A stretch of DNA of 64,000 nt from an uncultured Chloroflexia bacterium (GTDB taxonomy: Bacteria > Chloroflexota > Anaerolineae > Anaerolineales > UBA4823), in the NCBI GenBank assembly GCA_963788305.1, contig CAWBGK010000016.1, positions 119,500 to 183,499 on the forward strand, read 5' to 3'. Of this stretch, positions 29,908-43,107 are shown piece by piece. Under the pieces are notes generated by a model. That model made no database searches, was not told where the DNA came from, and saw nothing but the letters and a program-made list of their open reading frames with translations. Every line of letters begins with the position of its first letter. The stretch's first letter is position 1. The position numbers and the translations under genes are program-made.

Positions 29908-30699
29908 TTAGCGGACGCGGCGCCTCCATTCATCCTTCAATTGAAGCTGACGCGGACTCACTCCTGAATTCAGCATTAGGTAATCAACCAGAAGCCGGTT
30001 AAATTTGCTGCGTTCATCCAGCATCGGAAAATGCCCGGATCGATCGAATATAATTTGATGAATATTCTCCGAACTTACATATTTCTCCTCAGAAAGATCA
30101 GGGGCAGGCACAACTGGATCATTCTGACCGTAAACAAAGAGGCCAGGATTTTTCATTTTTTTTATTTCAGTTTCCAGCCTCAAATCACCCAGTCCTGAAG
30201 AATAATTTTGGATCACGCGGCCATCCATTTTCGGGACTTCATTTCTTGCTATTCCACCCTCCGGTGTTCGCGATAACAGCAAGTTCGCGAGCTCAAGTGG
30301 TCCATCAACAAGCAAGCGCGGGTTGACAGCCGGACCTTTTTGCGGCAGCCCAACGGCCAGCATCCTGTCAACCAGCTCCGGATTTCTTCCGGCATAACAG
30401 GTCGCCAAAATTGCCCCTAGTCCATGACCAATTAATACAATTCTATGAATACCCATGTCATGGAGAAAATAATCAACCAGTTCTAGCTGTTTTTCAAGCG
30501 AGTAATATTGTGGTGCCTTGGCTGTATCTCCGTACCCCCAAAGGTCCAGAGCGTAGGTACGATATGATAATGATGCAGCCTGCATTGCAGGCATCCAATA
30601 ACGCCAGGAACCGATCCACCCGTGCAAAAAAAGCAGCGGTTTGCCTCTTCCCAAAACTTCGTAATGAACAATTTCATTCTGCAAGAACAGGACACCCAT
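29908..30699 (-). CDS. Alpha/beta-hydrolase-fold protein with the nucleophile Ser replaced by Gly (GHGLG)
   Basis: It is a paralog of 40742..41530 (shared IHYEV.GRGKP...LHGW.GSW, RTYALD.WG.G, SGHF.MLDE). Position 93 is Gly (codon GGA, nt 30421-30423) instead of Ser. Confidence 0.8.
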   Translation of the reverse strand: MGVLFLQNEIVHYEVLGRGKPLLFLHGWIGSWRYWMPAMQAASLSYRTYALDLWGYGDTAKAPQYYSLEKQLELVDYFLHDMGIHRIVLIGHGLGAILATCYAGRNPELVDRMLAVGLPQKGPAVNPRLLVDGPLELANLLLSRTPEGGIARNEVPKMDGRVIQNYSSGLGDLRLETEIKKMKNPGLFVYGQNDPVVPAPDLSEEKYVSSENIHQIIFDRSGHFPMLDERSKFNRLLVDYLMLNSGVSPRQLQLKDEWRRRVR

Positions 30700-30726
30700 A
30701 TAGTTTGGACTTTCATCGAAAAAAAT

Positions 30727-31107
30727 TCAATCCCTTCGATAGTTTCCCAATAAGACCTTGACTCTTTCACAGAGCTGTTCAGGCGAAAAAGGTTTTATGA
30801 TGTAATCCTCTGCGCCTGCTTCCAGACCGGTTTGAACCTCACTTTCCTGCCCTTTGGCTGAAAGGAATGCAACTGGAATGTTCTTTGTTTGCTCATCCAA
30901 TTTCAACTTAATGCAGACCTCATATCCGGTCATTCGCGGCATTCGCACATCCAACAGGATGAGATCCGGCTGCTCTCTGTAGGCAGATTCGAAAGCCTCC
31001 TCACCATTGCTCGCAGTTATGACTTCGTAACCGGAAAACTGCAGTGTGAACCTGATTAACTCGCGAATATCACGCTCATCATCGGCAATTAAGATTTTCA
31101 TCATCAT
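30727..31107 (-). CDS. Single-domain response regulator (CheY-like receiver)
   Basis: KILIADDERDIR...DLILLDVRMPRMTGYEV...AFLSAKG...DYIIKPF. AGGA lies upstream of the ATG cluster at 31107-31101. The ORF is open from the GTG at 31125, which overlaps the kinase stop. Confidence 0.85.
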   Translation of the reverse strand: MMMKILIADDERDIRELIRFTLQFSGYEVITASNGEEAFESAYREQPDLILLDVRMPRMTGYEVCIKLKLDEQTKNIPVAFLSAKGQESEVQTGLEAGAEDYIIKPFSPEQLCERVKVLLGNYRRD

Positions 31108-31121
31108 GCAGATCCTCGTAT

Positions 31122-34100
31122 TCACAACTCAGGTAGATACACGGGTAATGCGAAGGAAAAAATACAACCTTGACCTGGAATTCCAGAACTTTCCACCCAA
31201 ATTCGACCTCCGTGCATCTCAATCATGCTCTTTACAATCGAAAGCCCCAATCCGGTGCCGGCAACACCAAGCGTAAGAGAGTTTTCTCCACGATAGAAGC
31301 GCTCAAAAACAAGTGTCTTGTCAATCGGATTGATCCCTATCCCTGAATCCTCAACATTGACCTGCAGCTCCATGCCAGATCGTTTGATTGATAACCGTAT
31401 ATGTCCATCCTCTAAATTATACAGATAGGCATTCTCCAGGAGATTATCAAAGACTCGACGGATTTTATCTGGATCGGCCTGAACCAGCGGAAGATGAGGC
31501 TCGAATGCATTATCGACATGGACAATTCGTTCACCATCCTTTATCCGAAGTTGAAAATCCTCAAGCGCATTCTCAGCGATCTGTTCCAAATTCAACGGTA
31601 CAAGTGAGAGCCTTACTCTCCCTGACTCTATCTGCGAAATATCAAGCAGATCGTTTACAAGTACGGACAATCTTTCTGTATTCTTTTTTACAACATTCAG
31701 AAAATGGATTTGTTGTTCTGAAAGGTCTCCTGCCGCGCCCATGAGTAAAATTTCGACATAACCCTTGATCGAAGTCATTGGAGTCCGCAGCTCGTGACTC
31801 ACGGTTGCCACAAACTCTGACTTCAGTCGATCTACTTCAACTTGATGGGTTACATCTTGAAATATGGACACAGTTCCAAGGAAATCATTCCGCAGGCTTA
31901 CAGGAGCCAGATGTACGGAGATAACTCGTCCATCTTCCAGGATGATCTGCTCGATCTGAGAATGACCAGGTAAACGACCTTCATCTACCGATGACCAACC
32001 GTTGATTTTTTCAAGCCATTTGCTGGTTGCCAGTCCGAACAGCCCGGCAAAATGCTCCATCGATTTTCCAATTGCCTGTAAACGGTCAATGCCAAGAATT
32101 TTTTCGGCTGATTCGTTAAATAATGTTATCTGGCGGTTTGAATCAGTGACTAATACTCCATCCGCTACAGCTTCGAGGATAGCTTTTGAGCGAGAAGTCT
32201 CAATCTGCTGATTGCGTAACATCGATCCGAGGTCTTCGGCCTGATCACGAATTAAACGGAACAATTCGGCATTATTCACTGAGATTGAAACCTGGTTAGC
32301 TGCAGCCTGGACAAGGTCCAGCTGGTCCAATGAAAAGTAATCCGGTTTTGAATTAAAAAGCACAAGGCAGCCCAGGGCTTCAGCCCCGCTCATCAACGGT
32401 ACCGCGATCACACTCTCGAATCGATTTTTATCTTCTGTCAAAAAATGCTGCTGCCAGCGATTATCCTGACTCGCATGCTTCAGCAAGAGTGGTTGACGGT
32501 GACGGAGTATCCAGGCTCCAAGATCTTGCTCCAGCAGCTGCCCATGATCCTGCTCTTTTTGCTCTAGTTCATAGTTCCGTCTAATCAATGCGAGCCGTTG
32601 CAGCTTCGTCTGGTCTGGGCGTTGAATGAGGATCGAGATTTGATCAGCATCGACATATTCGCTTAACACCAGGAGTGTTTGATCCAATACTTGGTTCAAG
32701 TCCAGGCTTGCAGACAGCTCAGTCATAATCCGAAGCAAGGTCTCTGAACGCATGTGCTCGCGTTCCAAATCGGCGGTACGCTGCTGAACGCGCAACTCCA
32801 GCCCTTCTGTCAGGCTCCGAGTTTCTTCGAACAGTCGAGCTTTTTTGAGTGCAGTGGCCACCTGGTTGCAGATGGTCCTGGCAAGCTCAACTTCTTCATA
32901 ACTGAAATGGTGGAAATCGATGGTGTGGGCAAAGATCAATCCGTGGATTTCGCGGAAGGCGTCTCCTTCCGTAGACTCGATTGACCCGCTTAAGATTGGA
33001 ACGATTAATAGAGAGCAGGTGTTATGACACGAAAATAGCTCCTTAAAAACCTCCAGATCTGATTCGTCGGAAACGTCAGTCGTCGTGAATATACCACCGC
33101 TCCTTGTGATATGTTCCACGATCGGGGTTTCAGGCAAGAAGGTCATGACCGGGATCTGCGATATGCCTGGAGCTGTGGCAGGTAATTCGACCTGGAGGAC
33201 AAAAGAGCCCCGCTGTTCTTTCAATGAGAAATCTATCCGGTCTTTAGCGAGAGTTATTTCAGACGCCAAAAAGTTCGTCATTTCCAATTTTTCGCCTGGT
33301 TCGAAAAATTGGAAAACCGAAACGGAGGAGCAAGAAAGTAATTCCAGAAATTCCTGGGCAGCGGTTGTCAGGATTTCCTCTGCATTCAGGGACTTACTCA
33401 ATTCTCCGGAAAGTCTATAAAGGTTATTTAAAGTCTGCGAATATTGATCGAGCTCTAAGGCTCGGGAGATACTGTCTTGATATAAATCTGCATTCTTCAA
33501 GCTTGAAGCAGCCTGAGCAGCGAAAGTCGCCGCGACCTGGATATCATCGAGGCTGAAATAGTCTGATTCGGCTTTTTCGAGGGCGATCACACCGCTCACC
33601 TGATCGGACAAGACCAGAGGAATGCCCAGCCACGAAAGGCATTTATTCTCAATCCCGATTCTTTTTAATCCCCCATCATTTTCAAAACCAGATTCTTCTT
33701 CAAGGGTTATAGGGTGAAAACGAGGATCATCCAAAACATTGGGGACCCGGAGGGGTTTCCTGGTCCGAATCATCTCATCCATCAGCCGGCTGTCCTGGAT
33801 ATCGACAGTCAGACCGATCTGCTGATCTTTTGGATCAAATCCACGCGCTGCAACGATCACCAACCGGTCGACATTGCGATCCTGATTTCGCAGCCAGAGA
33901 GTGCCCGTATCATAATTCAGTATGTATTTAATTTGATCAAGCAGACTTGCGATTAACGGCTCTTTTTCCAGGATTGAGGTGATTCGGGTCGAAGCCCTTG
34001 TCAATGCCTGGAGCTGCCTGGACCTCTGCTCAGATTCTTCAAACAGCCTGGCGTTTTCGATCGATAATGCCGTTTGATGAGCCAATGATGTCAGAACAGC

Positions 34101-37100
34101 CAGATCTTCCTCGTGGAATGAACCTGGGTTTTCACTGTTATCCAGGACCAGTACACCTATTGGCATCTGTCCGGTCTCATTAGATCGGTCTTTTTGGGCA
34201 GATGCAGCTTCACCTCCAATTTCGGTATAATGCATGCCAGTCATGATCGGGACAGCTATGCTGGAAACAGGCAGCTTTCCACCAGTGGCCTTGCGGAAAT
34301 GGATCATATTCTCTGATCTGAAGTTGTAATGCACAAGGAAATCGATCTCATCCAGCTTGATCGTTTGTTTCTTGTCGAAGGCGATTCCTGCCAGGCTTTC
34401 CCCCGGACGGTAAAGGACCTTCTTCAACTCCTCCATATCAGAATATCCTGCTGCCGAATGGGGAATAAGACAACCCATGCGCGAATCCCACAAAGCCACC
34501 ATAGCCATCTGGGCGCCGGGAACTAATTTCATTGTACTTTCAAGGAGCGACTGAATGATGCTCGCAAGGTCAAGATTACCTAGCTTTTGGCTGAAATCAA
34601 GCAGAAGATTGACCTCGCGTAAACGGCGAGCTGTAAGCTCATAATACCCAATATTGCGCAGTGACGCCGCCGTCTGGATGGCAAGCAAGTCCATCACATC
34701 CTTATCATCTTTGGTGAATGATGACCTGGCTTTTTGACTTGTAGCCAGTAAACCGATCTGTCCACAAGACGCATTGCCTTCTAAAAAGCGGGCATCCTCA
34801 TATAGGTCATCTGGCAAAGTGAAACATATGAAACTTCGAGCTTGAAGCGAATGAAGCAGCGGTGTTTCACGCCATTCTTCGCTTTCATCCACATCCGAAA
34901 TGAACAAGCTCTCACTATGGTTCATGCAGGCGCGGAATGGGTTTTTTTGGCCCAATAACAATTGAGGATACGTTTCTGGTGGAATCTGGCCAAAGACCTC
35001 GATCAGATTCAGGCTATTTTGAGACTTGGAAGCGATCAATACAGCATCAAAATCCATTCTTTTTACGATTTCGTCTCCAAGCGTTGAAAATAACTTCTCC
35101 CTGCTGGTTTGAAGCGAGATCAGGTTTACAAGGTCAAGACATCCACGGAATCTTGCTGCCCGAGACTCGAGATCTTGAGTCTTTAAATTCCAGACATGGG
35201 ATCTCTCTGTTAAATCAGAGATGTCATGCCACGTTTCGTTGGCTAATTGTCTCGTGGATTCAATCTCATCCCCAATTTGTTTAATCTGAGAATTCATTTC
35301 AAGGTTTTTTTGGTGACCCTCGATCAAGCCGCTAGTTTGCCTGCTGATTATCTCCAGTGTTTCGATGGTCGACCGATCTGGGCGCCTCCGATCGCGCGGC
35401 GAACCGAGGCTGATCAATCCCAACGGTTCACCTGACGAGCTGAAAATAGGGACAACCAGCAGATCATTCAGCTTCCAGGTCTTTCCTTCGCCAGTATCAT
35501 TCTCATCAGCAAGAGGAAAAGGTTGATTAATATCTTGTTGAATTAAAATTGCTTCTTCTGATGGGAAAAAATAAGCAGCTCCAATTTTCAAATCCGGTTT
35601 CAAAAAGGCTTCGAAGTCCGCCCAGATTTTAAGATAGGCGCACAGATTTTCTATCGCCTGATCCGGAATGCCCGCGAAGGCAACACGAACCAAACAGGAA
35701 GCAGCATGGTCAAGCAAGCTGATCGCCACGGCATTAAAGGGTGTTGCAGTTAGGATTACGCCTGCAATCATCTCAAGCATATTTTCAATGGGGCGTTCAG
35801 TTCCCAGCGCTCGGGATACATCAAGCAGACCGGTAAGAACTTCAACCTGTGTTTTCAGGCTTTCGGCGCGCCGGATCTGGTCGGCATAGCGCATTGCATT
35901 TCCGAGTGCAAAAGAGGCTTGAACTGCAAGAGCTTCGCCGATTTCGCGTTCAGCAGAACCAAAGCGATCAGCCTCCCACGCGTGCAGCTGGACCAAACCG
36001 GCAATTTGACCTTGATACGAGATCGGGATCATAAGCACCGAACGGATACCTGCATGTACCGGTCGGGGACCGTGATCCATTTGAATCTCATTAAAATCTC
36101 GAATAATCTGGGATTCGCCGGTCAGGATCACTTGCGCCTCAAGCTCACCTAAAGTTTCACCTGGACGATCACCCACATAATGGATAATTTCGGCTTGCTG
36201 TAGGACCGGCTCGATTCGCTCTGATAAGAAACCGAATGCATCGGTATCGATCTGGAAAAGGAAAATGCTGCCGCAATCCGCCCCTGTCATTTTTATCAAT
36301 TCGTCAAATACCTGCTGCAACAACCGCTGTAAATCCAACGTCCGGTTCAACTCACGGCTGATCCGGGTAATCGAGGTCAGCTGCTCGATTCTTAAACGCA
36401 ATGTCTGGTCCGTTTGTAATGAGAGGGCAGATTGATCGATTGCTGCCGCCAGCAATCCGGCTGCTGTAACCACGGTTTGCAAATCAAGACGAAGAAAGAA
36501 ATCCGGTTTGAAGCTCCCAACGAGAAGTTCTCCTATCCCGCGCTCTCGACAGATCAGGGGAGCACATACAATGGACTGCAGCCGGAATTCCTTAATCCAC
36601 GGCCAATAATTCAACCGGGAATCGAACTTTCCAAGCAGGTTCTCCACTACGAATGCCTTCTGTGTATATACTGCTGACTGCTGATATTCAGCCGAGTTTA
36701 TCGAGATTTGTGCTATCGATGCACCGGCACAGGCTTTGAATCCAAAGGCAGACTCTTCATGGAGGGACAACTCACCGTGATTTTCATCTATAAGTGAGAT
36801 GACCGCAGCATCAGCACCTAATAACCGTGCCAGGTCTTGCAATGAGTACTTCAAGATTTCATCTAAGGTGGCAGCTGAGCTGGTCAGGCTTGCAATCCTC
36901 CTCAAACTCTCTGCCCTTTGCGCCCGCTGACGCGAGCCCTGGACCAATCCTGCGTTCTCGATGATCGGAGAAGCCTGACTTGCTATGATCTCTAATAATC
37001 GCATATCAGCCGAACCAAGACCAGTACCATCTCGTTTCTTTGCCACAACAAGGAAACCAAGCGATCGTCCTCCTGAGGACAGCGGGATTAAGACAACCTG

Positions 37101-38474
37101 ACGAATTCCTGAAGCCTGTGCCAGGTGCTGAAACTCCAACAATTGCAGGCGAGCGTCCTCCGTTGCATCCTCACTTAAGATGGGTTGGATCCGGTTGATA
37201 ACTTCTTCTTTCAGGCTGCCTGGCTCGATCGTGGTTTGGTACCATTCCACCACGCTGTCAAGAATCCCGAAAAACGGCGTTTGCCCACGCAGCAGTCGGC
37301 GCTCTTCGTCATAGATCAGAAATCCTAAAAACTCAACTGGAAATATCGTTGCGATGCTCTCAACCAGGCGGTGATAAAGGTCTCGAGGATCGCTGATTAA
37401 ATGGACAACCTGGGCAAGCTGCACCAGACCAGAAAGCTCGCATGTAAGCCGGTGTTCTTTCTCGAAAGCCAGTGCATTTTTTAATGATATCGCAGCCTGC
37501 CCAGCCAATAAATTCATCAACTCCAGATCATTATCTGAATAAAATCCTGGGCTAAGCGAAGCGACCTCGAACGATCCGATGATCTCTCCGCAGGTTGTCA
37601 GTGGGACACCTATATATGAGCGGTATGGAAAGGTAATGCCATCTGCTTTCTGATGGAGGTCTTCAAACCTATCGATATCACGAATCAATAAAGGTTTGCG
37701 GTTTTTGATTAGATAATCAGATAATCGTGACTCGGAAGGGTCATTTCCTTCCGCTCGTTCCAGGCGAAGCTCGTCTCCGGGCAGCCCTACAAATCGAAAT
37801 CGGGTCAATTCTTTCGGTTCACCGATCAAGACCGTCGCTTCAAGGAAATCTGAAGGGATAATTCGCTCAGCACTTTCTAAAATTGTTCGAATTGTGGAAT
37901 TTACATTGGTACTATTCGCTATTGCCTGGCTGATTTCAGTAAAGATTTGAAAGGCTTGAGCTGACTGCAAAGCAGCTGGTTCAGCTTCATTTGCTGAACT
38001 GTTTATGAGCCCTGCACTGCGGTTAAAAACCAGTTGGGTAGGGCGCAAGACAACAGCGATCCCTTCCATTGGTCTCGGGTCCCCGTCGGAAAAGCAGGGA
38101 ACAAAATAAGAAGCCCCCTCAATTGTTCGGCCGTTTAATAAAAAGTAAGCTTTACATTCATACGAGCAAAGCGCCAAAAAATCCTCACCTGGTCGGGCGC
38201 GCCGTGCCAGATTTTCCAGATCGGGCAGTTCATCCCAGTCATCGAAAAGGCGCTGTGCCGCATGATTGATGTATCTGATCCGTCCTCCAGCTTGGACAAA
38301 AAGCAAGCCATCATCATGCGAGGTCGAGGGATCAAAGCCTGATTGAATTCTTTTAGCAGCGAGAAGAACTGGCTTTCTCTGAGAGTTCCTTATGGCCGCC
38401 TGGGTGGCAGCCATAAAGCCAAGCCCCAAGAAAACAAATATCACTCCCAGTAAGGCTGGACTCAGCTCAGACAT
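31122..38474 (-). CDS. Giant sensor histidine kinase (2450 aa): N-terminal TM, roughly ten tandem GAF domains, PAS, HisKA, HATPase_c
   Basis: The H-box EFVATVSHELRTPMTSIKGY is encoded near 31780-31810. The C-terminal N/G1/G2 boxes are NLLENA, EDSGIGI and GTGLGLSIV. A PAS-like segment SKAILEAVADGVLVTD is present. The preceding 1900 aa or so show the repeated GAF-like periodicity. The reading frame is uninterrupted over 7.35 kb. Confidence 0.9.
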   Translation of the reverse strand: MSELSPALLGVIFVFLGLGFMAATQAAIRNSQRKPVLLAAKRIQSGFDPSTSHDDGLLFVQAGGRIRYINHAAQRLFDDWDELPDLENLARRARPGEDFLALCSYECKAYFLLNGRTIEGASYFVPCFSDGDPRPMEGIAVVLRPTQLVFNRSAGLINSSANEAEPAALQSAQAFQIFTEISQAIANSTNVNSTIRTILESAERIIPSDFLEATVLIGEPKELTRFRFVGLPGDELRLERAEGNDPSESRLSDYLIKNRKPLLIRDIDRFEDLHQKADGITFPYRSYIGVPLTTCGEIIGSFEVASLSPGFYSDNDLELMNLLAGQAAISLKNALAFEKEHRLTCELSGLVQLAQVVHLISDPRDLYHRLVESIATIFPVEFLGFLIYDEERRLLRGQTPFFGILDSVVEWYQTTIEPGSLKEEVINRIQPILSEDATEDARLQLLEFQHLAQASGIRQVVLIPLSSGGRSLGFLVVAKKRDGTGLGSADMRLLEIIASQASPIIENAGLVQGSRQRAQRAESLRRIASLTSSAATLDEILKYSLQDLARLLGADAAVISLIDENHGELSLHEESAFGFKACAGASIAQISINSAEYQQSAVYTQKAFVVENLLGKFDSRLNYWPWIKEFRLQSIVCAPLICRERGIGELLVGSFKPDFFLRLDLQTVVTAAGLLAAAIDQSALSLQTDQTLRLRIEQLTSITRISRELNRTLDLQRLLQQVFDELIKMTGADCGSIFLFQIDTDAFGFLSERIEPVLQQAEIIHYVGDRPGETLGELEAQVILTGESQIIRDFNEIQMDHGPRPVHAGIRSVLMIPISYQGQIAGLVQLHAWEADRFGSAEREIGEALAVQASFALGNAMRYADQIRRAESLKTQVEVLTGLLDVSRALGTERPIENMLEMIAGVILTATPFNAVAISLLDHAASCLVRVAFAGIPDQAIENLCAYLKIWADFEAFLKPDLKIGAAYFFPSEEAILIQQDINQPFPLADENDTGEGKTWKLNDLLVVPIFSSSGEPLGLISLGSPRDRRRPDRSTIETLEIISRQTSGLIEGHQKNLEMNSQIKQIGDEIESTRQLANETWHDISDLTERSHVWNLKTQDLESRAARFRGCLDLVNLISLQTSREKLFSTLGDEIVKRMDFDAVLIASKSQNSLNLIEVFGQIPPETYPQLLLGQKNPFRACMNHSESLFISDVDESEEWRETPLLHSLQARSFICFTLPDDLYEDARFLEGNASCGQIGLLATSQKARSSFTKDDKDVMDLLAIQTAASLRNIGYYELTARRLREVNLLLDFSQKLGNLDLASIIQSLLESTMKLVPGAQMAMVALWDSRMGCLIPHSAAGYSDMEELKKVLYRPGESLAGIAFDKKQTIKLDEIDFLVHYNFRSENMIHFRKATGGKLPVSSIAVPIMTGMHYTEIGGEAASAQKDRSNETGQMPIGVLVLDNSENPGSFHEEDLAVLTSLAHQTALSIENARLFEESEQRSRQLQALTRASTRITSILEKEPLIASLLDQIKYILNYDTGTLWLRNQDRNVDRLVIVAARGFDPKDQQIGLTVDIQDSRLMDEMIRTRKPLRVPNVLDDPRFHPITLEEESGFENDGGLKRIGIENKCLSWLGIPLVLSDQVSGVIALEKAESDYFSLDDIQVAATFAAQAASSLKNADLYQDSISRALELDQYSQTLNNLYRLSGELSKSLNAEEILTTAAQEFLELLSCSSVSVFQFFEPGEKLEMTNFLASEITLAKDRIDFSLKEQRGSFVLQVELPATAPGISQIPVMTFLPETPIVEHITRSGGIFTTTDVSDESDLEVFKELFSCHNTCSLLIVPILSGSIESTEGDAFREIHGLIFAHTIDFHHFSYEEVELARTICNQVATALKKARLFEETRSLTEGLELRVQQRTADLEREHMRSETLLRIMTELSASLDLNQVLDQTLLVLSEYVDADQISILIQRPDQTKLQRLALIRRNYELEQKEQDHGQLLEQDLGAWILRHRQPLLLKHASQDNRWQQHFLTEDKNRFESVIAVPLMSGAEALGCLVLFNSKPDYFSLDQLDLVQAAANQVSISVNNAELFRLIRDQAEDLGSMLRNQQIETSRSKAILEAVADGVLVTDSNRQITLFNESAEKILGIDRLQAIGKSMEHFAGLFGLATSKWLEKINGWSSVDEGRLPGHSQIEQIILEDGRVISVHLAPVSLRNDFLGTVSIFQDVTHQVEVDRLKSEFVATVSHELRTPMTSIKGYVEILLMGAAGDLSEQQIHFLNVVKKNTERLSVLVNDLLDISQIESGRVRLSLVPLNLEQIAENALEDFQLRIKDGERIVHVDNAFEPHLPLVQADPDKIRRVFDNLLENAYLYNLEDGHIRLSIKRSGMELQVNVEDSGIGINPIDKTLVFERFYRGENSLTLGVAGTGLGLSIVKSMIEMHGGRIWVESSGIPGQGCIFSFALPVYLPEL

Positions 38475-38481
38475 CTTTTGA

Positions 38482-39375
38482 TTAATTCAAGCTTTGCTGC
38501 CGCCTAGATTCTGCGGCTAGTTCGGTGATTTCACGGATGTCCGAAAAATCATTCTTTGAAGGTGAGACGATCCCGACTGCCAGCTTCATCAGCGGAGCCT
38601 GAACCACCGAGCCATCGGACAACTCAGCTTCAATAAAGCCCCTTTCACGATCAAGGAATGAATAATGCGCCAGCGATTCTTCTTTAAAACGTTGTCTCAA
38701 GATATCGGAAATCTTCCGAACAGCGGCTTCAGTCGTCACTACGACAAAATTCTCTCCACCCGAGTGTCCAATGAAATCATTCTGAGTACCTAACTCATCA
38801 ATAACATCACCCATCAGCATTGCAGTGAATCGGAGCAAATTATCTGCTGCGACAAAACCATATACATCTCGGAAGACTTCATAATGGATGATGCGCAGAT
38901 CCATGAACGCCCAAGAATCCAACCGGATAATTCGGCGCAGTTGTTCTTCTATCAGCCGACCGGAAGGAAGTCCGGAACGTGGGTCGGTCAGGCTCTGTTG
39001 GTCAGCCCGTGTGATGGCACGCTGGACGCGCAGCTTGAGCTCTTCAATATCAAACGGTTTCGTGATGTAATCGTCGGCGCCGAGCTCTAATCCCTGGAGC
39101 TTATCGCTTCTCTCGTCTTTCTGAGTGAGGAATATGATCGGGACATGACTCGTGCGGGTATGCGTACGTAATACTCTGCATACATCGAAACCGTCTATAT
39201 CCGGGAGCATGATGTCCAGGACGATTAGATTCGGCAGGTTCTGGCGTGTTTTTTCCAACGCCTCAGACCCTCGATGGGCCAAATCGACTTCAAAATTTTG
39301 TGCATTGAATAAGATTTGAAGCATGTTGGCGATATCAGTATCATCTTCAACAATCAGCAACCGGGGTTTTCCCAT
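38482..39375 (-). CDS. Response regulator with receiver plus degenerate GGDEF domain (GGENF)
   Basis: The REC domain is LLIVEDDTDI...LIVLDIMLPDIDGF...DDYITKPF. The C-terminal domain carries DPRSGLPSGR (degenerate GL.NR) and HSGGENF (nt about 38747-38767) in place of RxGGDEF. Confidence 0.85.
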   Translation of the reverse strand: MGKPRLLIVEDDTDIANMLQILFNAQNFEVDLAHRGSEALEKTRQNLPNLIVLDIMLPDIDGFDVCRVLRTHTRTSHVPIIFLTQKDERSDKLQGLELGADDYITKPFDIEELKLRVQRAITRADQQSLTDPRSGLPSGRLIEEQLRRIIRLDSWAFMDLRIIHYEVFRDVYGFVAADNLLRFTAMLMGDVIDELGTQNDFIGHSGGENFVVVTTEAAVRKISDILRQRFKEESLAHYSFLDRERGFIEAELSDGSVVQAPLMKLAVGIVSPSKNDFSDIREITELAAESRRQQSLN

Positions 39376-39414
39376 TCCAGCCTCCCGAGAAAATCAATAG
39401 CTTAATCTTCTCAC

Positions 39415-40719
39415 TCACCAGATTTCTTCGACAACTTCGCCTTTACGCGGGTAGAGGCGTGGATGCAGTTGAGCAAATGCCAGGGTATGGTGATCGCTTT
39501 GCTCGTAGTGGATATCTCTATCGATCACACGTCGCTCATGGGATGCAAATAACACGACGTCCGACTCGACAGTGCGCGCCGGGAATACAATCAGTCCAGA
39601 TCCCAGCCGGCAGTTATGTCCTACACAACCACCCAATACAGGACGATTGGATTCATTGAGACACCCTCCACCATCAATCGCCCTCAATGGCGCAGACAGA
39701 AGATTAAAATCGGTAAAAGTCGATCCAGCTCCGATGAAAGTATTTCGACCGATCACACACATCTGCAAACAGGTGTTTTGAGCCACCATGCTGTTGTCCA
39801 TCAAGGTAGTCATAAACAAAGATGTCCGGAATGGTAAAAAAGCCCCATCCCCAATCACTGAAAGCATGAGCTGGCAGTCTTGAGAAATGTTGACGTTATC
39901 GCCAATGATGCAGTTTTCGATAACTGCCCCGGCATTGATCGTTACATTATTCCCGATCGATGTTGGGCCGTGGATCACAGCGCTCGGATCGATAACGCAG
40001 TTACTTCCAGTTCGAACAAGCTTTGAACATTCAAGCACCTGTTTTCCTTCAAACATCCCCGCTGCCAGGATGCCCAATTTAAAGAGCACATCCGTCTCGA
40101 GCTGATCTTCGAATCGAGCTCCGCGCGCGAATAATCCAAATACAACATCCGCAATGAAAATGTGCACCCAAGAGTTGATAGCGAGCAGGCTGCGACGAGG
40201 CACATGGAATAGCAGGTCCCCCTGCTCTTGAGCCATGTAGGTAGGCACGTGATAATATCCCACCTCACGGGATTCCAATCCTATCGCCAGCGGCTCGAAA
40301 GATCGCATGGATCTCCAGTCTGTATGTTCGCGCTGGATACCTGCTGGAAAATACCACAAATCTGCCAGGAAAATCTCGTCATAAGGCGTGTAGGAGACGG
40401 AGAGCGGCAAAGCGTGTTCTTTAAATGCCAGATCGGCTGCTGAAAACGCGGCCCGGCTGGGTAATTTCCGCTGCTGGGCAGCCGTGATGAAATCTCTGAT
40501 ATATTGAGCATCGAAGAAAAGGTTATCACGGTAAACAAGACACGCTTCTTGAGTCTCAATTAGAGATTCCCAAGGCTTCAGCTCGACTTCGCGATGAGTA
40601 TAAGGCGAAAGGACATCGCGCTGGTACAGCCAGAGTGGTTTATTCTGGATCCGCAAATCTCGGGCGGGTTCATTAAAAGGGTGGATGTGGCGTTGGTCCT
40701 GCAGGATGATTTTTAACAT
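39415..40719 (-). CDS. Left-handed beta-helix (hexapeptide-repeat) protein with a GlmU-like but atypical N-terminal domain
   Basis: Residues 235-400 show imperfect hexapeptide periodicity (IGNNVTINAGAVIENCIIGDNVNISQDCQL..., VGHNCRLGSGLIVFP). The N-terminal 220 aa lack a recognisable nucleotidyltransferase G-x-G-x-R motif. Confidence 0.6.
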   Translation of the reverse strand: MLKIILQDQRHIHPFNEPARDLRIQNKPLWLYQRDVLSPYTHREVELKPWESLIETQEACLVYRDNLFFDAQYIRDFITAAQQRKLPSRAAFSAADLAFKEHALPLSVSYTPYDEIFLADLWYFPAGIQREHTDWRSMRSFEPLAIGLESREVGYYHVPTYMAQEQGDLLFHVPRRSLLAINSWVHIFIADVVFGLFARGARFEDQLETDVLFKLGILAAGMFEGKQVLECSKLVRTGSNCVIDPSAVIHGPTSIGNNVTINAGAVIENCIIGDNVNISQDCQLMLSVIGDGAFLPFRTSLFMTTLMDNSMVAQNTCLQMCVIGRNTFIGAGSTFTDFNLLSAPLRAIDGGGCLNESNRPVLGGCVGHNCRLGSGLIVFPARTVESDVVLFASHERRVIDRDIHYEQSDHHTLAFAQLHPRLYPRKGEVVEEIW

Positions 40720-40741
40720 TAATTTCTGATTTTGTTCGAGT

Positions 40742-41530
40742 TTAACAAGGTTCGCCTAAAAAGCTTGCCAGTATATTAACAAACTGGTTTGGCTCATCCA
40801 GCATGATGAAGTGTCCGGATTGGGGAAAGCGCTCGATTTGGGCATGCGCAATCCCTGACTTCAATGAAGACCATTCCTTAGGATCCACGACGATATCTCG
40901 ATCCCCATACATTCCCATGACTGGCGCCGTGACCTGATGCAGGACGGGGCGGAGATCTGTCCTGCGAAGCGAAGCAATACTGAGAAGGAATGATTCCAAA
41001 GTCGTGCTGGAAATATCCCGGTTCATCATTTCTGGCCAGCGCGGATCGCGAGAATATGAGCGCCTAAGCACCCGAAATCCCAGCTTGAGCCCCCACAAAT
41101 TATGGTGTACGATCGATGCGATCGGTCGCAGTCCAAAAAGCTTGAGCAAGAACGAGAGGGACGACCCCACAATGGGTGAGCCAATGACCACCACCTTTCG
41201 GACGCGATTCGGGTATCGTATCGCCACCGCCAAGCTGACTGTCCCACCCATGCTGTGCCCGACCAGGGGAGCGTTCTCGATCCCGAGCTGCTCCATGAAT
41301 TGATCGACGAGATTGATGAAATCCGCCACTCTATAGGTGTCGAGTTTTGGTCCTGACTCACCGAAACCCCAAAAATCAAGCGCGTAGGTTCGGAAATGTC
41401 TGCCGAGCCGGGTCATCGTCTCCTGCCATAAACCCCACGAACCCAGCCAACCATGAAGCAGGATCACCGGTTTCCCGCGACCGTAAACCTCGTAATGAAT
41501 TATTCCCTGATCAGTGACAAATGAAGACAC
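40742..41530 (-). CDS. Alpha/beta hydrolase with an intact Ser-Asp-His triad
   Basis: GHSMGG (Ser93), GDRDIVV and SGHFIMLDE. It is a paralog of 29908..30699. Confidence 0.8.
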   Translation of the reverse strand: MSSFVTDQGIIHYEVYGRGKPVILLHGWLGSWGLWQETMTRLGRHFRTYALDFWGFGESGPKLDTYRVADFINLVDQFMEQLGIENAPLVGHSMGGTVSLAVAIRYPNRVRKVVVIGSPIVGSSLSFLLKLFGLRPIASIVHHNLWGLKLGFRVLRRSYSRDPRWPEMMNRDISSTTLESFLLSIASLRRTDLRPVLHQVTAPVMGMYGDRDIVVDPKEWSSLKSGIAHAQIERFPQSGHFIMLDEPNQFVNILASFLGEPC

Positions 41531-41563
41531 AATCCACTCAATTCAATTCTGATTTATCGCGAG

Positions 41564-42109
41564 CTAATTTATCGACTCGCTGAATTCCATCTCAGCCAGG
41601 ATGCTGTACAAAAGCTCTAATAATACATTCTTTACCGATTCCTTTTCGGTGGCCACACAAGAGAGCAGTTTAATTTTTGAATCAAGCCGAAGAGCAATCC
41701 GCATGTCACTCAAGTCCCAGGCATCCTCCCGGTCCTGTTTGTTGGCGGTGACAACATACGGGGTGGGGGCATACGCCCGGAACGTTTCCAGAATGCTTCG
41801 TGCTTCTCGAAACGTCTCAGGCCGGGTGCTGTCCACCATCACAACAAATCCCAACATCCCCTCGGATAAAATCTCCCACATGAAATCAAAACGTTTCTGA
41901 CCAGGCGTGCCAAACAAATACAGCACCAGGTCTTTGTCGACTCCAATCCTCCCAAAGTCCATCGCCACGGTCGTTGTGTTTTTTACTTTTTCGACATCCA
42001 GGCTAATTTTCCGTTCAGTTGCGACGACATCGATCTCACTCACGGAACGGATGAACTGCGTTTTCCCAGCGTTGAAAGGACCTGTTACGACCATCTTGAC
42101 TGTTTGCAT
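41564..42109 (-). CDS. Small Ras-like GTPase of the CvnD / COG2229 (ATP/GTP-binding protein) type
   Basis: P-loop GPFNAGKT; TTTVAMDFGRI; switch II LFGTPGQKRFDFMW; G4 NKQD. Confidence 0.8.
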   Translation of the reverse strand: MQTVKMVVTGPFNAGKTQFIRSVSEIDVVATERKISLDVEKVKNTTTVAMDFGRIGVDKDLVLYLFGTPGQKRFDFMWEILSEGMLGFVVMVDSTRPETFREARSILETFRAYAPTPYVVTANKQDREDAWDLSDMRIALRLDSKIKLLSCVATEKESVKNVLLELLYSILAEMEFSESIN

Positions 42110-42145
42110 TGCTAGTATTCCTGGCTCTTTATTCTTTCAAACCAT

Positions 42146-42979
42146 TTAAATGGAGCGAATGCGCATGATCAGCCGATTTAACAGCGATTTCTTTTCTGCT
42201 GGGGCTTCTGGCCTCGAGTTTGATTGAAGAGGCAGTGGTCTGGATGGAAAAATTTGTCTCAGCCCCTCCGGGCGTGTGAGCTCGACAACACCTGCTTGCA
42301 GCAACGTGTACACAATCCGGCGGATCTCCATTTCCCCCAGGTTTGTTGCCTTCGCAATCTGGCGAATCGAATTTTTAGGGTCGATAAAAGATACGACCCG
42401 CCACTCTGCCTGGTTCAGGTTGAGTTTGCGGATGTTTGCCCCTGGCCTTTCAGCAAATTTCAGCGACATTTCGAGGTTTGGGATCTCGTCCTGAAGCCGC
42501 TCCCATTCTTGCAGCCGGCGTGAACCTTCGACAATGATGTTTTCCAACCCGAGCCGAACCGTGATCTTTCCCTCCGGAGGCATTGCGTCATTCTCGAAAT
42601 GGAACAGTCCTTCTGCCCAGCCGAATAAGCGATTGACAATCCCGATGAAATAGGACTGCAAGCTGGTCAGGATATCCTGCTGGGAGAGGTAATTGGCATT
42701 AATAAGCAGCAATCCTAATTCTTTGTCGCTCATTTTTGCGGTGCGTTCTTTGAGGGCTCGCCCCTGGTGAGCGGTCAGCTTTTGAGATCGGTAAAGAACC
42801 GCGACAAGGCCGTTGTCTTCCTGGCCAATCTGAGCATACGCCAGCTTGCCTTCCCGAAAGCTGAGCAGGACACGCTCGTCTGGTTTCTCCACGACCAGCG
42901 TGCCGGTTTTACGCGCCAGGTTAATCAGATTTAACAGCTGTGTGATCGTAAAATCGCGCAGGTTTCCCTTGAGTGCCAT
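42146..42979 (-). CDS. DUF4388 (PATAN-like) domain protein with a C-terminal DUF742-like winged helix
   Basis: The N-terminus LKGNLRDFTITQLLNLINLARKTGTLVV is the DUF4388 signature. The C-terminus LNQAEWRVVSFIDPKNSIRQIAKATNLGEMEIRRIVYTLLQAGVVEL resembles the CvnC/DUF742 wHTH. Confidence 0.7.
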   Translation of the reverse strand: MALKGNLRDFTITQLLNLINLARKTGTLVVEKPDERVLLSFREGKLAYAQIGQEDNGLVAVLYRSQKLTAHQGRALKERTAKMSDKELGLLLINANYLSQQDILTSLQSYFIGIVNRLFGWAEGLFHFENDAMPPEGKITVRLGLENIIVEGSRRLQEWERLQDEIPNLEMSLKFAERPGANIRKLNLNQAEWRVVSFIDPKNSIRQIAKATNLGEMEIRRIVYTLLQAGVVELTRPEGLRQIFPSRPLPLQSNSRPEAPAEKKSLLNRLIMRIRSI

Positions 42980-43107
42980 ATGGTTCTCTTATATGCATGC
43001 TGAAACCGGATTGTAAAGAGAATTGCTGAATGGATTATACTTGCCAGGACATTTGTAAGACCCTACAACTTAGTTAGCTTGGTTACGCTGAGAAATCCAC
43101 AGCTGAA

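Follow-up and report, generated by a model that had tools for sequence, protein, structure and literature searches.

The DNA analysed here is a stretch of 64 kb (hereafter the window), for which an earlier reading made from the sequence alone had called eight minus-strand genes with tight junctions. All eight open reading frames, G1 to G8, were found where that sequence-only reading had placed them, at 29908-42979 (Table 1). The gaps from G1 to G8 are 36, 33, 22, 39, 7, -4 and 27 nt; the negative value reflects a 4-nt overlap between the GTG start of G7 and the stop of G6, and becomes +14 nt if G7 starts at the alternative ATG at 31107. Promoter and terminator signals were no more frequent within the cassette than expected by chance, and the cassette is probably co-transcribed as an operon-like unit. 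The closest genome (L008) shares the native leader of G1, in which a TATAAT hexamer precedes the ATG by ~46 nt; homology of the leader ends ~24 nt short of the end of an insertion sequence (IS). This IS, correctly recognized beforehand as the upstream boundary, comprises a transposase (43268-44617) and imperfect terminal inverted repeats (43133-43181 and 44617-44672). Downstream, the predicted promoter of the next operon matches at 11/12 positions (29906-29878, minus strand) and is followed by a TPP riboswitch (29839-29727). The window also contains Tad-type pseudopilin genes, at 1630-6373. The domains assigned earlier to the eight proteins were recovered in a Pfam search, DUF742 in G1 apart.

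Table 1. Features of the eight-gene cassette and its leader (positions in the window).
Feature	Position	Strand	Evidence
Native leader upstream of G1, 130 nt	42980..43109	-	blastn vs L008: 92% identity over 130 nt
G1, PATAN (DUF4388) + winged helix + C-terminal helix, 277 aa	42146..42979	-	Pfam PF14332, AF2, synteny
G1 PATAN core, aa 4-160, with four-helix insertion aa 58-119	42500..42970	-	Pfam envelope, AF2
G1 winged helix aa 172-235, disordered linker, terminal amphipathic helix aa 261-276	42152..42466	-	AF2, Pfam, Foldseek, hhalign
G2, MglA-family small GTPase, 181 aa	41564..42109	-	Pfam, PDB match, tree placement
G3, alpha/beta hydrolase, intact Ser-Asp-His triad, 262 aa	40742..41530	-	Abhydrolase_1 E 1.5e-35
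G4, nucleotidyltransferase-like N-domain + left-handed beta-helix, 434 aa	39415..40719	-	Pfam, Foldseek
G5, receiver + degenerate, truncated GGDEF, 297 aa	38482..39375	-	Response_reg E 1.8e-29
G5 degenerate active-site motif SGGENF	38746..38763	-	Direct reading
G6, histidine kinase, 2450 aa	31122..38474	-	Pfam, domain dissection
G6 N-terminal hydrophobic, membrane-anchor-like segment, aa 4-26	38397..38465	-	Kyte-Doolittle 19-residue mean 2.22
G6 GAF array, at least 10 domains, aa 196-2065	32280..37889	-	Iterative HMM
G6 PAS-HisKA (SHELRTP)-HATPase_c core, aa 2095-2445	31140..32192	-	Pfam; H-box, N/G boxes read
G7, single-domain CheY-like receiver	30727..31125	-	Response_reg E 1.3e-31
G8, alpha/beta-hydrolase fold without nucleophile serine, 263 aa	29908..30699	-	Abhydrolase_1 E 2.6e-20
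G8 nucleophile elbow G-H-G-L-G-A, Ser -> Gly	30412..30429	-	GHG[LY]G in 29/29 orthologues

The DUF4388/PatA_N domain of G1 scored 88.7 bits in Pfam, and in the AF2 model (mean pLDDT 68) the helices of its insertion span residues 58-64, 70-79, 85-94 and 100-119. The winged-helix unit that follows has a beta-H-H-H-beta topology; Pfam wHTH matches to it were sub-threshold, its Foldseek matches included the RPC39 and MarR winged helices, and the terminal amphipathic helix ends ...KSLLNRLIMRIRSI. A DUF742-like winged helix had been proposed behind the PATAN domain. The winged helix is indeed present, and its likeness to DUF742 has moderate support: DUF742 was not detected in G1 by Pfam and the direct comparison gave P 0.003 (HHalign probability 10%), while the C-terminus of G1 matched the GTPase partners of Deinococcus/Thermus with P 8.7e-7 (hhalign) and these Deinococcota partners matched six CvnC (DUF742) proteins with P 2.2e-5, shuffled and reversed controls giving P >= 0.07. 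These comparisons suggest that the C-terminal module of G1 is DUF742-like, mostly transitively through the Deinococcota partners. G1 is always directly upstream of G2 in orthologous loci and is a candidate direct regulator or adaptor of this GTPase.

G2 matched ATP_bind_1/Ras/Arf small GTPases in Pfam and its closest PDB match was Thermus MglA (E 5e-7). Direct reading gave GPFNAGKT, TTTVAMDFGR, GTPGQKRFDFMW, GTPGQKRF and NKQD; the motifs quoted by the sequence-only reading are therefore present, but they are not the CvnD signature it took them for, being shared beyond CvnD proteins, with NKxD absent from all six CvnD sequences examined. G2 has a GTPGQ motif and a Thr at the Arg-finger position of MglA, as in Groups 2-5. 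Its identity to the six CvnD proteins (35-41%) is similar to that with Deinococcota proteins, and the NxFD and DAR motifs of Group 2, the conservon group, are absent. Group 2 was monophyletic without G2 in 100/100 bootstraps and Anaerolineae grouped with it in 23/100 only; in 63/100 neighbour-joining bootstraps of a small taxon sample, the G2 clade lay beside the PATAN-linked GTPases of Deinococcota (Group 5). The CvnD-type assignment thus fails the test of clade membership that the sequence-only reading had itself set, and these data show that G2 is an MglA-family (COG2229-type) GTPase belonging to Group 5, the PATAN-linked type. In 2014, Anaerolinea thermophila ANT_06780, which we infer to be the orthologous counterpart of G2, was tabulated as 'MglA Group 5, <MglA><PATAN>', without MglB, and the MglB-less PATAN-MglA pair is also present in Chloroflexus, Roseiflexus and Herpetosiphon (PMC4316618); the PATAN-GTPase core was therefore already known. 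Across Anaerolineae, G2 is 79-92% identical with invariant motifs and is the most conserved protein of the cassette, which fits the expectation for a hub.

The GHSMGG of G3 is kept in 71/71 orthologues, and among PDB structures it is related to MCP hydrolases, epoxide hydrolases and esterases. G8 is a paralogue of G3 (~31% identity, tblastn cross-matches) and, as had been noticed, lacks the nucleophile serine, which is missing in 29/29 orthologues with Asp and His retained. Neither G3 nor G8 showed specific similarity to known receptor hydrolases. In G4, Pfam (Hexapep/LbH_EIF2B/GMPPB_C) covered aa ~232-300 only; Foldseek gave weak matches to GMPPB/VTC1, RmlA and ST0452 (E ~1e-4, TM ~0.3, on a model that is poor past aa 150), and the G-x-G-T-R-L nucleotide-binding loop is absent. 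With its conserved N-terminus and compact family, G4 is the most specific marker of the cassette.

The kinase H-box, the ATPase boxes and the acceptor Asp residues of the receivers are all intact. Pfam identified multiple GAF domains, PAS, HisKA and HATPase in G6, the GAF matches summing to 340 bits in 9 stretches, and an iterative HMM built on G6 yielded 10 GAF matches (E 1e-10 to 1e-46). Its N-terminal hydrophobic segment was found in 32/32 assessable orthologues. In G5 the receiver D54 is invariant, and the GGDEF domain matches profile positions 2-109 of 161; together with the active-site motif (GG[D/E]NF in orthologues, AGGDNF and similar in 66/67), this bears out the degenerate GGDEF receiver described earlier. 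G7 consists of the receiver only, with acceptor Asp and K-P-F motif conserved in 55 orthologues, and neither G5 nor G7 has a DNA-binding domain.

G4 occurs in at least 592 species genomes, and around it the gene order proved conserved in Anaerolineae: G1-G3 lay upstream in 62/65 testable loci and G5-G7 downstream in 52/57 fully testable loci, with G8 next in 48 (order-conservation counts across loci: 62/65, 65/69, 52/57). As the G1-G8 order recurs in genomes with differing flanking genes, the cassette is more than a chance arrangement, and these results show a conserved signalling cassette of the class Anaerolineae that couples an MglA-family GTPase to a two-component system. The sequence-only reading could match the architecture to no described system; this stands for the whole cassette, of which we found no description in the searchable literature, and not for the PATAN-GTPase pair, a known Group 5 arrangement. 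The two halves are separable, since three loci have G1-G4 without G5-G8, unrelated genes coming next (L051, L058, L069), three have G4-G8 without G1-G3 (L049, L071, L077), and in a distant lineage a G4/G5/GAF-kinase block is paired with a different, Ras-like GTPase; L179 has the G4/G5/kinase block without G1-G3, and in A. thermolimosa nitrite reductase genes follow G1-G4 (PMC8756737). Sister lineages have an accessory V4R gene (53 loci), V4R being a Zn-Cys4 fold that binds ligands and is related to TRAPPC3 (PMC10933270), and ~26 loci have an accessory acyl-thioester reductase gene (TIGR04058 8e-37, PigE N-domain 5e-64). The window lineage keeps the cassette and is missing both genes.

The absence of a roadblock partner, also claimed earlier, was confirmed at the locus, where a roadblock HMM found no match in any frame of the 64-kb window, but it probably does not extend beyond it. 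A Roadblock-V4R (41/41)-REC/GGDEF* (30/41)-GT2 module is highly conserved in related genomes and occurs in at least 559 metagenome stretches; it adjoins the cassette in L059 and L099, co-directional with G1, and in L059 and L103 a UbiA prenyltransferase lies upstream of it. Its REC/GGDEF* protein is a paralogue of G5. In the distant lineage, the G4/G5/GAF-kinase block neighbours a GTPase-roadblock-V4R cluster, and A. thermophila has an orphan MglB, ANT_03760. Since the module is conserved in relatives and abuts the cassette in two loci, a GAP probably acts in trans, from a roadblock module encoded elsewhere.

We propose that the cassette may constitute a combined G-protein and phosphorelay signalling system with a non-transcriptional output and a small hydrophobic ligand, a proposal that we regard as evenly balanced between right and wrong; the functional links among its members all rest on synteny and domain logic. 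Membrane-anchored G6 would integrate small-molecule or metabolic cues via its GAF domains (at least 10) and phosphorylate the receivers G5 and G7, which, both being without a DNA-binding or catalytically competent output domain, would act on the G1-G2 switch through protein-protein contact. G1 would load or position G2, because its C-terminal winged helix and tail resemble the CvnC/MfpC (DUF742) module, the presumed exchange factor for the GTPases of conservons (MfpC is reportedly the likely GEF and the roadblock protein MfpD the GAP, PMC13343842), and the roadblock protein of the module encoded elsewhere would stimulate GTP hydrolysis. G3, as an active hydrolase, G8 and G4 might synthesize, trim or bind the ligand, a small hydrophobic or acyl molecule that feeds the switch, joined in sister lineages by the V4R protein and the acyl-thioester reductase. 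The cassette may read a small-molecule ligand, as the sequence-only reading had suggested; its output would be non-transcriptional, probably an envelope or polar machine controlled via the PATAN domain.

Other explanations were considered. G1-G4 (a GTPase module) and G5-G8 (a two-component system with a pseudo-hydrolase) could be separate units, adjacent by inheritance and without cross-signalling, which is rather unlikely: the halves are found apart in the loci listed above, including L179, and the widest intergenic gaps and the accessory insertions fall around G4/G5, but co-linearity holds in 52/57 fully testable loci with differing flanking genes, both receivers lack an output domain of their own, and the G5 paralogue in the roadblock-V4R module ties this receiver type to GTPase regulators. 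Moreover, since G4 accompanies both G5 and the kinase in the distant lineage too, GTPase and two-component parts are not cleanly split. It is less probable still that the operon mainly serves the biosynthesis or remodelling of an envelope component or signal derived from lipids or sugars, with G3, G4 and the accessory reductase as working enzymes and the GTPase and two-component proteins merely as regulators. The triad of G3 (intact in 71/71 orthologues), the sugar-nucleotidyltransferase/LbH-like architecture of G4, the acyl-ACP reductase/PigE family of the accessory reductase, and the GT2 glycosyltransferase that ends the roadblock module, with UbiA upstream in L059 and L103, would suit such a role; however, G8 is catalytically disabled in all orthologues, G4 is without the nucleotide-binding loop, signalling proteins account for 5/8 genes, no transporter, carrier-protein or polymerase gene is conserved in the cassette, and the window lineage keeps it without reductase and V4R.

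An MglA-like polarity or motility switch, in which the GTPase-PATAN pair would steer a pilus or gliding motor towards one end of the cell or filament in the manner of MglA/MglB and of cyanobacterial PatA-type regulators, appears improbable to a slightly greater degree. The Synechocystis PATAN domain localises to the membrane, binds PilB1/PilC and sets direction (bioRxiv 2021.06.11.447907). Thermus MglA is the best solved relative of G2, RomR and FrzS are among the response regulators that interact with MglA, gliding filamentous Chloroflexi have the same MglB-less pair, and Tad-type genes lie in the window. On the other hand, these genes are 24 kb off and unlinked in other loci, the cassette has no conserved neighbour encoding a pilus or motor ATPase, the intrinsic Arg finger and the TVPGQ motif of MglA are missing from G2, and cultured Anaerolineae are described as non-motile. 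Least credible, and largely refuted, is derivation from an actinobacterial conservon, that is, a CvnD-type system in which the roadblock gene disappeared and DUF742 became fused to PATAN. The 35-41% GTPase identity, the common TTTVAxDFGR and GTPGQxRFxFMW motifs, the DUF742-like tail of G1 and the presence of a kinase, conservons having the GAF accessory protein CvnF, all speak for it. Against it, G6 differs from CvnA in being a classical HisKA kinase that has cognate receivers and no LPxR tail; response regulators are absent from conservons; and PATAN-GTPase(-MglB) is a widespread Group 5 pattern. Conservon membership was rejected on the position of G2 outside the Group 2 clade (100/100; with Anaerolineae in 23/100 only) and its lack of NxFD and DAR.

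The cassette is thus a relative of the Streptomyces conservon, not a member. Conservons (AGPS; Mfp in mycobacteria) comprise the CvnA kinase, CvnB roadblock, CvnC DUF742 and CvnD GTPase proteins. Common to both are an MglA-family small GTPase (identity ~40%) operonically coupled to a sensor kinase, a distantly DUF742-like module, and GAF sensing, through accessory CvnF there and an array fused in G6 here. The cassette differs in its GTPase group, in having a PATAN domain and no roadblock gene in cis, in its HisKA kinase with two receivers, in phylum and in its additional enzyme-like genes. In its usual form, found in Aquificae, Deinococcus-Thermus and cyanobacteria, the Group 5 module reads MglB-PATAN-MglA, and the MglB-less pair is that of Chloroflexus, Roseiflexus, Herpetosiphon and Anaerolinea (Wuichet & Sogaard-Andersen 2014, PMC4316618). 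The cassette shares with Group 5 the GTPGQ G3 motif, Thr for the Arg finger, a PATAN gene directly upstream of the GTPase and a partner with homologous winged helix and tail (P 8.7e-7), and with the other Chloroflexi entries the lack of a coupled MglB. Published as a two- or three-gene neighbourhood table, the pair sits here in a conserved eight- to ten-gene cassette that adds the multi-GAF kinase, two receivers, two hydrolase-fold proteins and the NTase/LbH protein; the G4 motif of G2 is the canonical NKQD, versus T(R/H)QD in Deinococcota Group 5 examples.

MglA of the Myxococcus/Thermus MglA-MglB polarity switch, the closest solved structural relative of G2, is likewise a Ras-like switch with a roadblock GAP and receiver-domain inputs (RomR/Frz there), whereas G2 has neither intrinsic Arg finger nor TVPGQ and no mglB or motility genes are linked. 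As in cyanobacterial PatA-type (PATAN-REC) proteins, the PATAN domain has a helical insertion and would work downstream of phosphorelays together with a separate single-domain CheY; in G1, however, it is fused to a winged helix rather than REC, the receivers being separate proteins and a GTPase interposed. V4R is absent from the window, but the accessory V4R of sister lineages, with its TRAPPC3-related fold, and the roadblock protein associated in trans loosely recall the eukaryotic and Asgard GTPase platforms, namely the longin-roadblock proteins of Ragulator/GATOR1 and TRAPP. The best fold matches of the G1 model, weak ones (E 1.6e-3 to 5e-2, TM ~0.25), were NPRL2/NPRL3, GAP subunits that combine longin and winged-helix domains.

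The eight minus-strand genes that run from position 42979 down to 29908 of the window (G1 to G8, G1 being the first) are all present exactly where the sequence-only reading had placed them, and successive genes are separated by 36, 33, 22, 39, 7, -4 and 27 nt. A scan of the eight proteins with Pfam and NCBIfam agreed with every domain call of that reading, as listed in the table. Promoter-like and terminator-like matches inside the cassette showed no excess: 13 promoter-like matches were found against 13.9 expected from shuffled sequences, and 13 terminator-like matches against 12.6. These counts are compatible with, rather than proof of, a single transcription unit.

Features of the cassette proteins (aa), of the window around the cassette (nt) and of the L179 locus (nt)
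Feature	Position	Strand	Evidence and remarks
G1, DUF4388/PATAN (PF14332)	aa 4-160		Pfam, 88.7 bits (cut-off 25)
G1, PATAN core with four-helix (alpha-clip) insertion	insertion aa 58-119		AF2 model
G1, winged-helix unit, beta-H-H-H-beta	aa 172-235		AF2 model
G1, disordered linker, winged helix to terminal helix			AF2 model
G1, terminal helix	aa 261-276		AF2 model
G2, small GTPase			Pfam ATP_bind_1, Ras, Arf
G3, alpha/beta hydrolase			Pfam
G4, hexapeptide/LbH	aa ~232-300 only		Pfam
G5, REC and partial GGDEF			Pfam; motif SGGENF
G6, GAF-PAS-HisKA-HATPase kinase, 2450 aa			Pfam
G7, REC domain alone			Pfam
G8, alpha/beta-hydrolase fold			Pfam; G-H-G-L-G instead of G-x-S-x-G
sigma-70-like promoter	29906-29878		11/12; downstream of cassette, heads thiamine operon
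TPP riboswitch	29727-29839		65 bits; heads thiamine operon
IS transposase	43268-44617	-	HTH domains, weak rve_3 match
IS terminal inverted repeats (TGATCAGC...TGTCA)	43133-43181 and 44617-44672		imperfect, internally duplicated
tRNA gene	44745-44817		beyond IS; 12/12 promoter at 44690-44718
tyrosine integrase	44956-45945		directly after tRNA gene
M23 peptidase	45989-46525		phage-like region
holin	49707-50054		phage-like region
1532-aa ORF	51709-56307		phage-like region
L179 cluster	1-4337		ENA ERZ27272740 k141_765254; GTPase with DGGVGKST, NKRD

The gene order of the cassette recurs widely in Anaerolineae. Relatives of the GTPase G2 number in the thousands; in the best 120 clusters identity is 84-98%, and those with a name are from Anaerolineales or Anaerolinea. 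On long contigs the gene order is identical while the upstream neighbours differ. A G4 profile, run against a collection with a single genome for each species, identified at least 592 genomes carrying G4. The eight window proteins were mapped on the best 80 of these loci, which are all from Anaerolineae (genera Anaerolinea, Levilinea, Bellilinea, Longilinea, Ornatilinea and Thermanaerothrix among them): G1-G2-G3 lie upstream of G4 in 62 of the 65 testable loci, G5 lies downstream of G4 in 65/69, and G5-G6-G7 follow in order in 52/57; G8 comes after G7 in 48 loci, and in 4 more the locus ends first. Of the window proteins, the GTPase is the closest to its counterparts in these loci (79-92% identity) and the kinase the most distant (32-51%). 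Outside the cassette, neighbours are not conserved, the largest upstream cluster being a divergent helicase-like gene (16 loci); in 11 fetched loci, as in the window, the gene after G8 encodes a thiamine pyrophosphokinase. Partial forms exist: three loci (L051, L058 and L069) hold G1-G4 only, among them that of A. thermolimosa, whose cassette genes show up incidentally in an appendix (PMC8756737), and three loci hold G4-G8 and lack G1-G3. Two accessory genes recur in sister lineages and are missing from the window: a Cys-rich V4R protein of ~205 aa encoded between G3 and G4 in 53 loci (e.g. L048, 9353-9994), and a reductase of ~363 aa encoded between G4 and G5 in ~26 loci (L016 11282-12364, L042 11283-12374 and ~24 others). 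The latter belongs to the acyl-ACP-reductase/PigE-N-domain family (TIGR04058, E 8e-37; PigE, E 5e-64), an assignment that holds at the family level only, both scores being below the equivalog cut-offs. In the genome nearest to the window (CAVSCE010000007.1, 95-98% aa identity; loci L001/L008), the kinase orthologue is spread over several gene calls and the G8 match is partial, both genes being intact in the window; frameshift errors of that assembly are the likely cause. Levilinea saccharolytica KIBI-1 carries two whole cassettes on one contig (L024 and L025; NZ_LGCM01000042.1, 42437-79336) as a 100%-identical, head-to-head inverted duplication of 17.3 kb, which is either real and recent or an assembly artefact.

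The sequence-only reading had assigned G2 to the CvnD-type GTPases of the actinobacterial conservon, with TTTVAMDFGR, GTPGQxRFxFMW and NKQD as the signature. Neither the assignment nor the signature survived: the first two motifs are family-wide, and NKQD is unlike CvnD. GTPases of Groups 2-5 are marked by GTPGQ and by a Thr in place of the intrinsic Arg finger of MglA (PMC4316618), and G2 has both hallmarks (GTPGQ[KR]RF in 69/69 sequences; (K/N)TTTV in switch I). The hallmarks of Group 2, NxFD at the GTPase motif G4 and DAR at the motif G5 (PMC4316618), are missing from the window GTPase, which has NKQD and S-C-V-A-T, whereas six CvnD proteins show VN-x-F and CDAR-like motifs. In an NJ tree (180 columns, 100 bootstraps) that included six CvnD sequences and three Deinococcota PATAN-linked GTPases, the six conservon GTPases (Group 2) were monophyletic in 100/100 replicates with the Anaerolineae proteins outside; the Anaerolineae clade was itself recovered in 100/100, its union with the Deinococcota PATAN-linked proteins in 63/100 and with the conservon clade in 23/100. 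The best solved relative of G2 is Thermus MglA, at an E-value of only 5e-7. A tblastn search against plasmids retrieved, at 39-43% identity, Deinococcus/Thermus GTPases that belong to PATAN-GTPase-roadblock triads and Streptomyces/Nocardia GTPases that belong to conservons.

An adjoining PATAN gene is a Group 5 trait, and G1 lies 36 nt upstream of G2, the same neighbourhood being found in 62/65 loci. The 179-aa protein ANT_06780 of Anaerolinea thermophila is tabulated as 'MglA Group 5', <MglA><PATAN>, without a coupled MglB (PMC4316618, Table S2); from its length, its neighbourhood and the 85%-identical Anaerolinea proteins, rather than from an alignment, we infer that it is the G2 orthologue. 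The same source gives the MglB-less PATAN-MglA pair for Chloroflexus, Roseiflexus and Herpetosiphon, has MglB-PATAN-MglA as the usual order in Aquificae, Deinococcus-Thermus and cyanobacteria, and in its main text treats the PATAN association as merely occasional (PMC4316618). As the pair already stands in that table, the two-gene core has been catalogued since 2014, including its MglB-less Chloroflexi form, as a comparative-genomics entry, and the extended cassette has not. The earlier remark that the architecture could not be matched to a described system holds for the extended cassette, for which our literature search found no paper describing or testing it, and does not hold for the PATAN-MglA (Group 5) pair.

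The AF2 model of G1 (mean pLDDT 68) comprises four parts. A DUF742-like winged helix had been proposed for this protein. Pfam gave no DUF742 match to G1 even at E <= 10 and winged-helix families only below threshold, and a shallow hhalign comparison with DUF742 was negative (E 0.52). A signal arose only with deeper profiles and an intermediate family, the sets being three Deinococcus/Thermus GTPase partners and six CvnC (DUF742) proteins collected from annotated plasmids: the G1 C-terminus matched the Deinococcus/Thermus partners (P 8.7e-7, HHalign probability 91%) and these matched CvnC (P 2.2e-5, 77%), the direct match of G1 to CvnC being weak (P 0.003, 10%). The three alignments are co-linear over the winged helix, the linker and the terminal 'LLxRhxxxLRxL' helix, and controls with reversed profiles and, for each pair, 25 profiles with shuffled columns all gave P >= 0.07. 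These profile comparisons argue, mainly by transitivity and with moderate strength, for a DUF742-like tail on G1. What gives the link its weight is that, for the conservon GTPase MfpB, the reported likely exchange factor is MfpC (DUF742) and the reported GAP is MfpD (roadblock) (PMC13343842). In Foldseek searches with the whole G1 model, the top matches were NPRL2/NPRL3-type chains of GATOR1/SEAC (E 1.6e-3 to 5e-2, TM ~0.25), a likeness that may serve as a weak lead.

A roadblock HMM made from nine annotated proteins was run against the six frames of the window and 80 Anaerolineae loci. It found no match in the window at E <= 1, and this lack of a coupled MglB/roadblock gene agrees with the 'PATAN>MglA' entries for other Chloroflexi (PMC4316618). 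Among the 80 loci it matched one, L059, which served as positive control and in which a Roadblock/LC7 - V4R - REC/GGDEF* - GT2 mini-operon (4157-7039; GGDEF* denotes a degenerate GGDEF) lies directly upstream of G1 in the same direction. A metagenome search with the L059 roadblock protein retrieved at least 559 stretches at 70-95% identity. In the metagenome loci with enough downstream sequence (L102-L177 among our handles), V4R follows the roadblock gene in 41/41 cases, the next gene is a G5 paralogue (REC/GGDEF*) in 30/41, and a GT2 glycosyltransferase comes after it. This Roadblock-V4R module is usually unlinked from the cassette, adjoining it only in L059 and L099 (760-3459); A. thermophila has an orphan MglB, ANT_03760 (PMC4316618). 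No V4R, GT2 or reductase gene was found in the window. The claim that the cassette lacks a roadblock partner thus holds as far as the locus itself is concerned, a conserved roadblock module being present in related genomes. Displacement of a roadblock gene by the IS or prophage insertion was considered and rejected, since relatives without the IS also begin at G1 and have unrelated genes upstream; the likelier arrangement is a GAP of G2 encoded in trans, for which the module of related genomes offers a candidate.

A distant G4 relative lies in another context (L179/L180), in the order V4R - G4-like - G5-like (G5 HMM, E 7.5e-114) - unknown - 3011-aa GAF kinase. Beside this block, a divergent cluster encodes a Ras/Rab-like GTPase that is not of the G2 type, two unassigned proteins (315 and 425 aa) that resemble each other N-terminally, a roadblock protein and a V4R fusion; this cluster is another uncharacterised small-GTPase system.

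The giant kinase and its receivers have all the elements of classical two-component signalling (H-box, N/G boxes, REC Asp). An iterative HMM search on G6 itself revealed at least 10 GAF domains, which are preceded by a hydrophobic segment (aa 4-26) and a PAS-like stretch and followed by an intact H-box (SHELRTP) and ATPase core (DNLLENA, GTGLGLSI). G7 is an intact CheY-like receiver; in both G5 and G7 the D54-type acceptor Asp, the T/S and K-P-F are invariant among orthologues, and neither protein carries a DNA-binding output. Measured against diguanylate cyclases, G5 has GGENF in the window and GG[D/E]NF in nearly all orthologues rather than GG(D/E)EF, its GGDEF domain covers profile positions 2-109 of 161, and TQND takes the place of the upstream RxxD. 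The degenerate GGDEF receiver read from the sequence is borne out by the GG(D/E)NF motif and the truncated domain.

The enzyme-like proteins differ in how much of their motifs they retain. GHSMGG is kept by G3 in 71/71 orthologues. G8, called serine-less from the window alone, retains Asp and His and has G-H-G-(L/Y)-G in 29/29 orthologues; it is a conserved pseudo-hydrolase or, at the least, a protein without the serine. By sequence, both are generic members of the hydrolase superfamily. A receptor-hydrolase role of the RsbQ/KAI2/D14 kind was considered for G3 and G8 and set aside, their nearest solved relatives being generic MCP hydrolases, epoxide hydrolases and esterases. G4, conserved from end to end (mean column identity 79%), belongs to a compact family, of which a set of 1.84 billion representatives yielded 78 clusters at E <= 1e-30. 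Its model, confident for aa 1-150 only, matches the fold of nucleotidyltransferase+LbH proteins (GMPPB, RmlA, ST0452) weakly (E ~1e-4, TM ~0.3). Pfam NTP_transferase does not match G4, and the G-x-G-T-R-L loop is absent, K-I-I-L-Q-D-Q-R-H-I-H-P-F being conserved across orthologues instead; G4 may act on a nucleotide-sugar-like ligand as a binding protein and not as an enzyme. The V4R domain of the accessory protein adopts a TRAPPC3-related Zn-Cys4 fold that binds ligands (PMC10933270).

Comparison with the conservon shows that the cassette fails most of the defining tests, yet the working principle is the same. The conservon GTPase belongs to Group 2 (CvnD/MfpB clade) whereas G2 lies outside it, and the conservon has an adjoining roadblock/LC7 gene, CvnB, whereas the window has none. 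CvnA extends at its C-terminus into an LPxR tail and lacks a cognate response regulator; in contrast, G6 ends ...FALPVYLPEL directly after HATPase_c and is flanked by two REC proteins. A GAF-domain protein is also encoded beside the PATAN-like/GTPase/roadblock triad of a Deinococcus sp. AB2017081 plasmid (L096, 3103-3501), and another beside a Streptomyces cellulosae conservon (L095, 2079-2621); together with the cassette, GAF domains thus accompany such GTPases in three phyla.

The kinase and the receivers of the conserved cassette are intact, and the receivers have no DNA-binding output. The GTPase is likewise intact and is of the Groups 2-5 type, and its PATAN/winged-helix partner has a module in common with the proteins that accompany other GTPases of this kind. 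We propose that the GAF kinase G6 would phosphorylate G5 and G7, and that these receivers would modulate the G1-G2 switch; precedents are MglA, which operates with the RomR and Frz receivers (PMC4316618), and PATAN regulators, which operate beside single-domain CheYs (bioRxiv 2021.06.11.447907). G1 would be a GEF-like loader or adaptor and a roadblock protein encoded in trans the GAP, while G3, G8, G4 and the accessory V4R and reductase proteins would supply or perceive a small hydrophobic ligand. The output would be non-transcriptional, possibly PATAN binding to a membrane machine, as demonstrated for PilB1/PilC in Synechocystis (bioRxiv 2021.06.11.447907), or envelope glycan synthesis, given the GT2 link. 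We hold this composite, taken as a whole, to be an even call, what the proteins are being much firmer than how they are wired. A more ambitious reading, which we consider improbable, is that the cassette is half of a prokaryotic two-locus, ligand-gated GEF/GAP platform, one that is neither a conservon nor an MglAB switch, with regulators that would parallel those of eukaryotic and Asgard GTPase platforms. The PATAN/winged-helix protein would then be an exchange factor or GAP scaffold, likened in architecture to the longin-plus-winged-helix NPRL2/3 subunits, with a tail resembling an ancestor of CvnC/DUF742; the roadblock protein would be the GAP, and everything would be wired to the giant GAF kinase. 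The TRAPPC3-fold V4R and the serine-less hydrolase would be receptors for a lipid-derived signal, e.g. a fatty aldehyde from the accessory reductase.

To our knowledge, bacterial small Ras-like GTPases are understood in two settings only, Myxococcus polarity and the actinobacterial conservon/Mfp; the cassette would be a third arrangement. Its interest rests on (i) its abundance, with at least 592 species-level genomes and a GTPase 79-92% identical throughout, in Anaerolineae, filamentous organisms that are dominant in digesters, sediments and activated sludge, (ii) the explicit two-component/G-protein coupling, the GTPase being hard-wired to a classical histidine kinase and receivers, so that the question of such coupling in bacteria becomes directly testable with defined partners, (iii) the similarity between the tail of the PATAN partner and DUF742, which suggests a common GTPase-binding module that, if it holds, would bring the conservon and the widespread PATAN-MglA-MglB modules together, and (iv) the conserved pseudo-enzymes, the pseudo-hydrolase and the NTase-like/LbH protein being, with the V4R and reductase accessories, candidate ligand inputs. 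We know of no ligand input identified for any bacterial small-GTPase system.

The boundaries of the cassette, an IS upstream and the near-consensus promoter of the next operon downstream, are as first described. The IS (43133-44672) looks complete, sits ~150 nt upstream of G1 and is missing from the closest related genome, homology to which stops 130 nt upstream of the G1 start codon, ~24 nt before the IS end. As homology reaches that far, the IS is a recent insertion that has kept the native leader. Beyond it, the region 44690-57936 is probably a prophage or an integrative element at the tRNA site. That the cassette is an anti-phage defence system was considered because of the neighbouring IS, integrase and phage genes, and rejected: PADLOC returned no system match, its models showing only generic REC-domain similarity to the cassette (E >= 4e-6), and elsewhere the cassette occupies varied non-mobile contexts. 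On the other side, the thiamine pyrophosphokinase gene behind the TPP riboswitch (window 29011-29839) is split over two frames at ~29286, residues 1-117 being in one and 117-208 in another (orthologues, 211 aa), a frameshift that marks either a pseudogene or a sequencing error. Some 24 kb away from the cassette, and unlinked to it in other genomes, three minus-strand genes (window 1630-6373) encode proteins with TadE/TadG-like (Flp/Tad pilus pseudopilin) N-termini, one of which also has a VWA domain.
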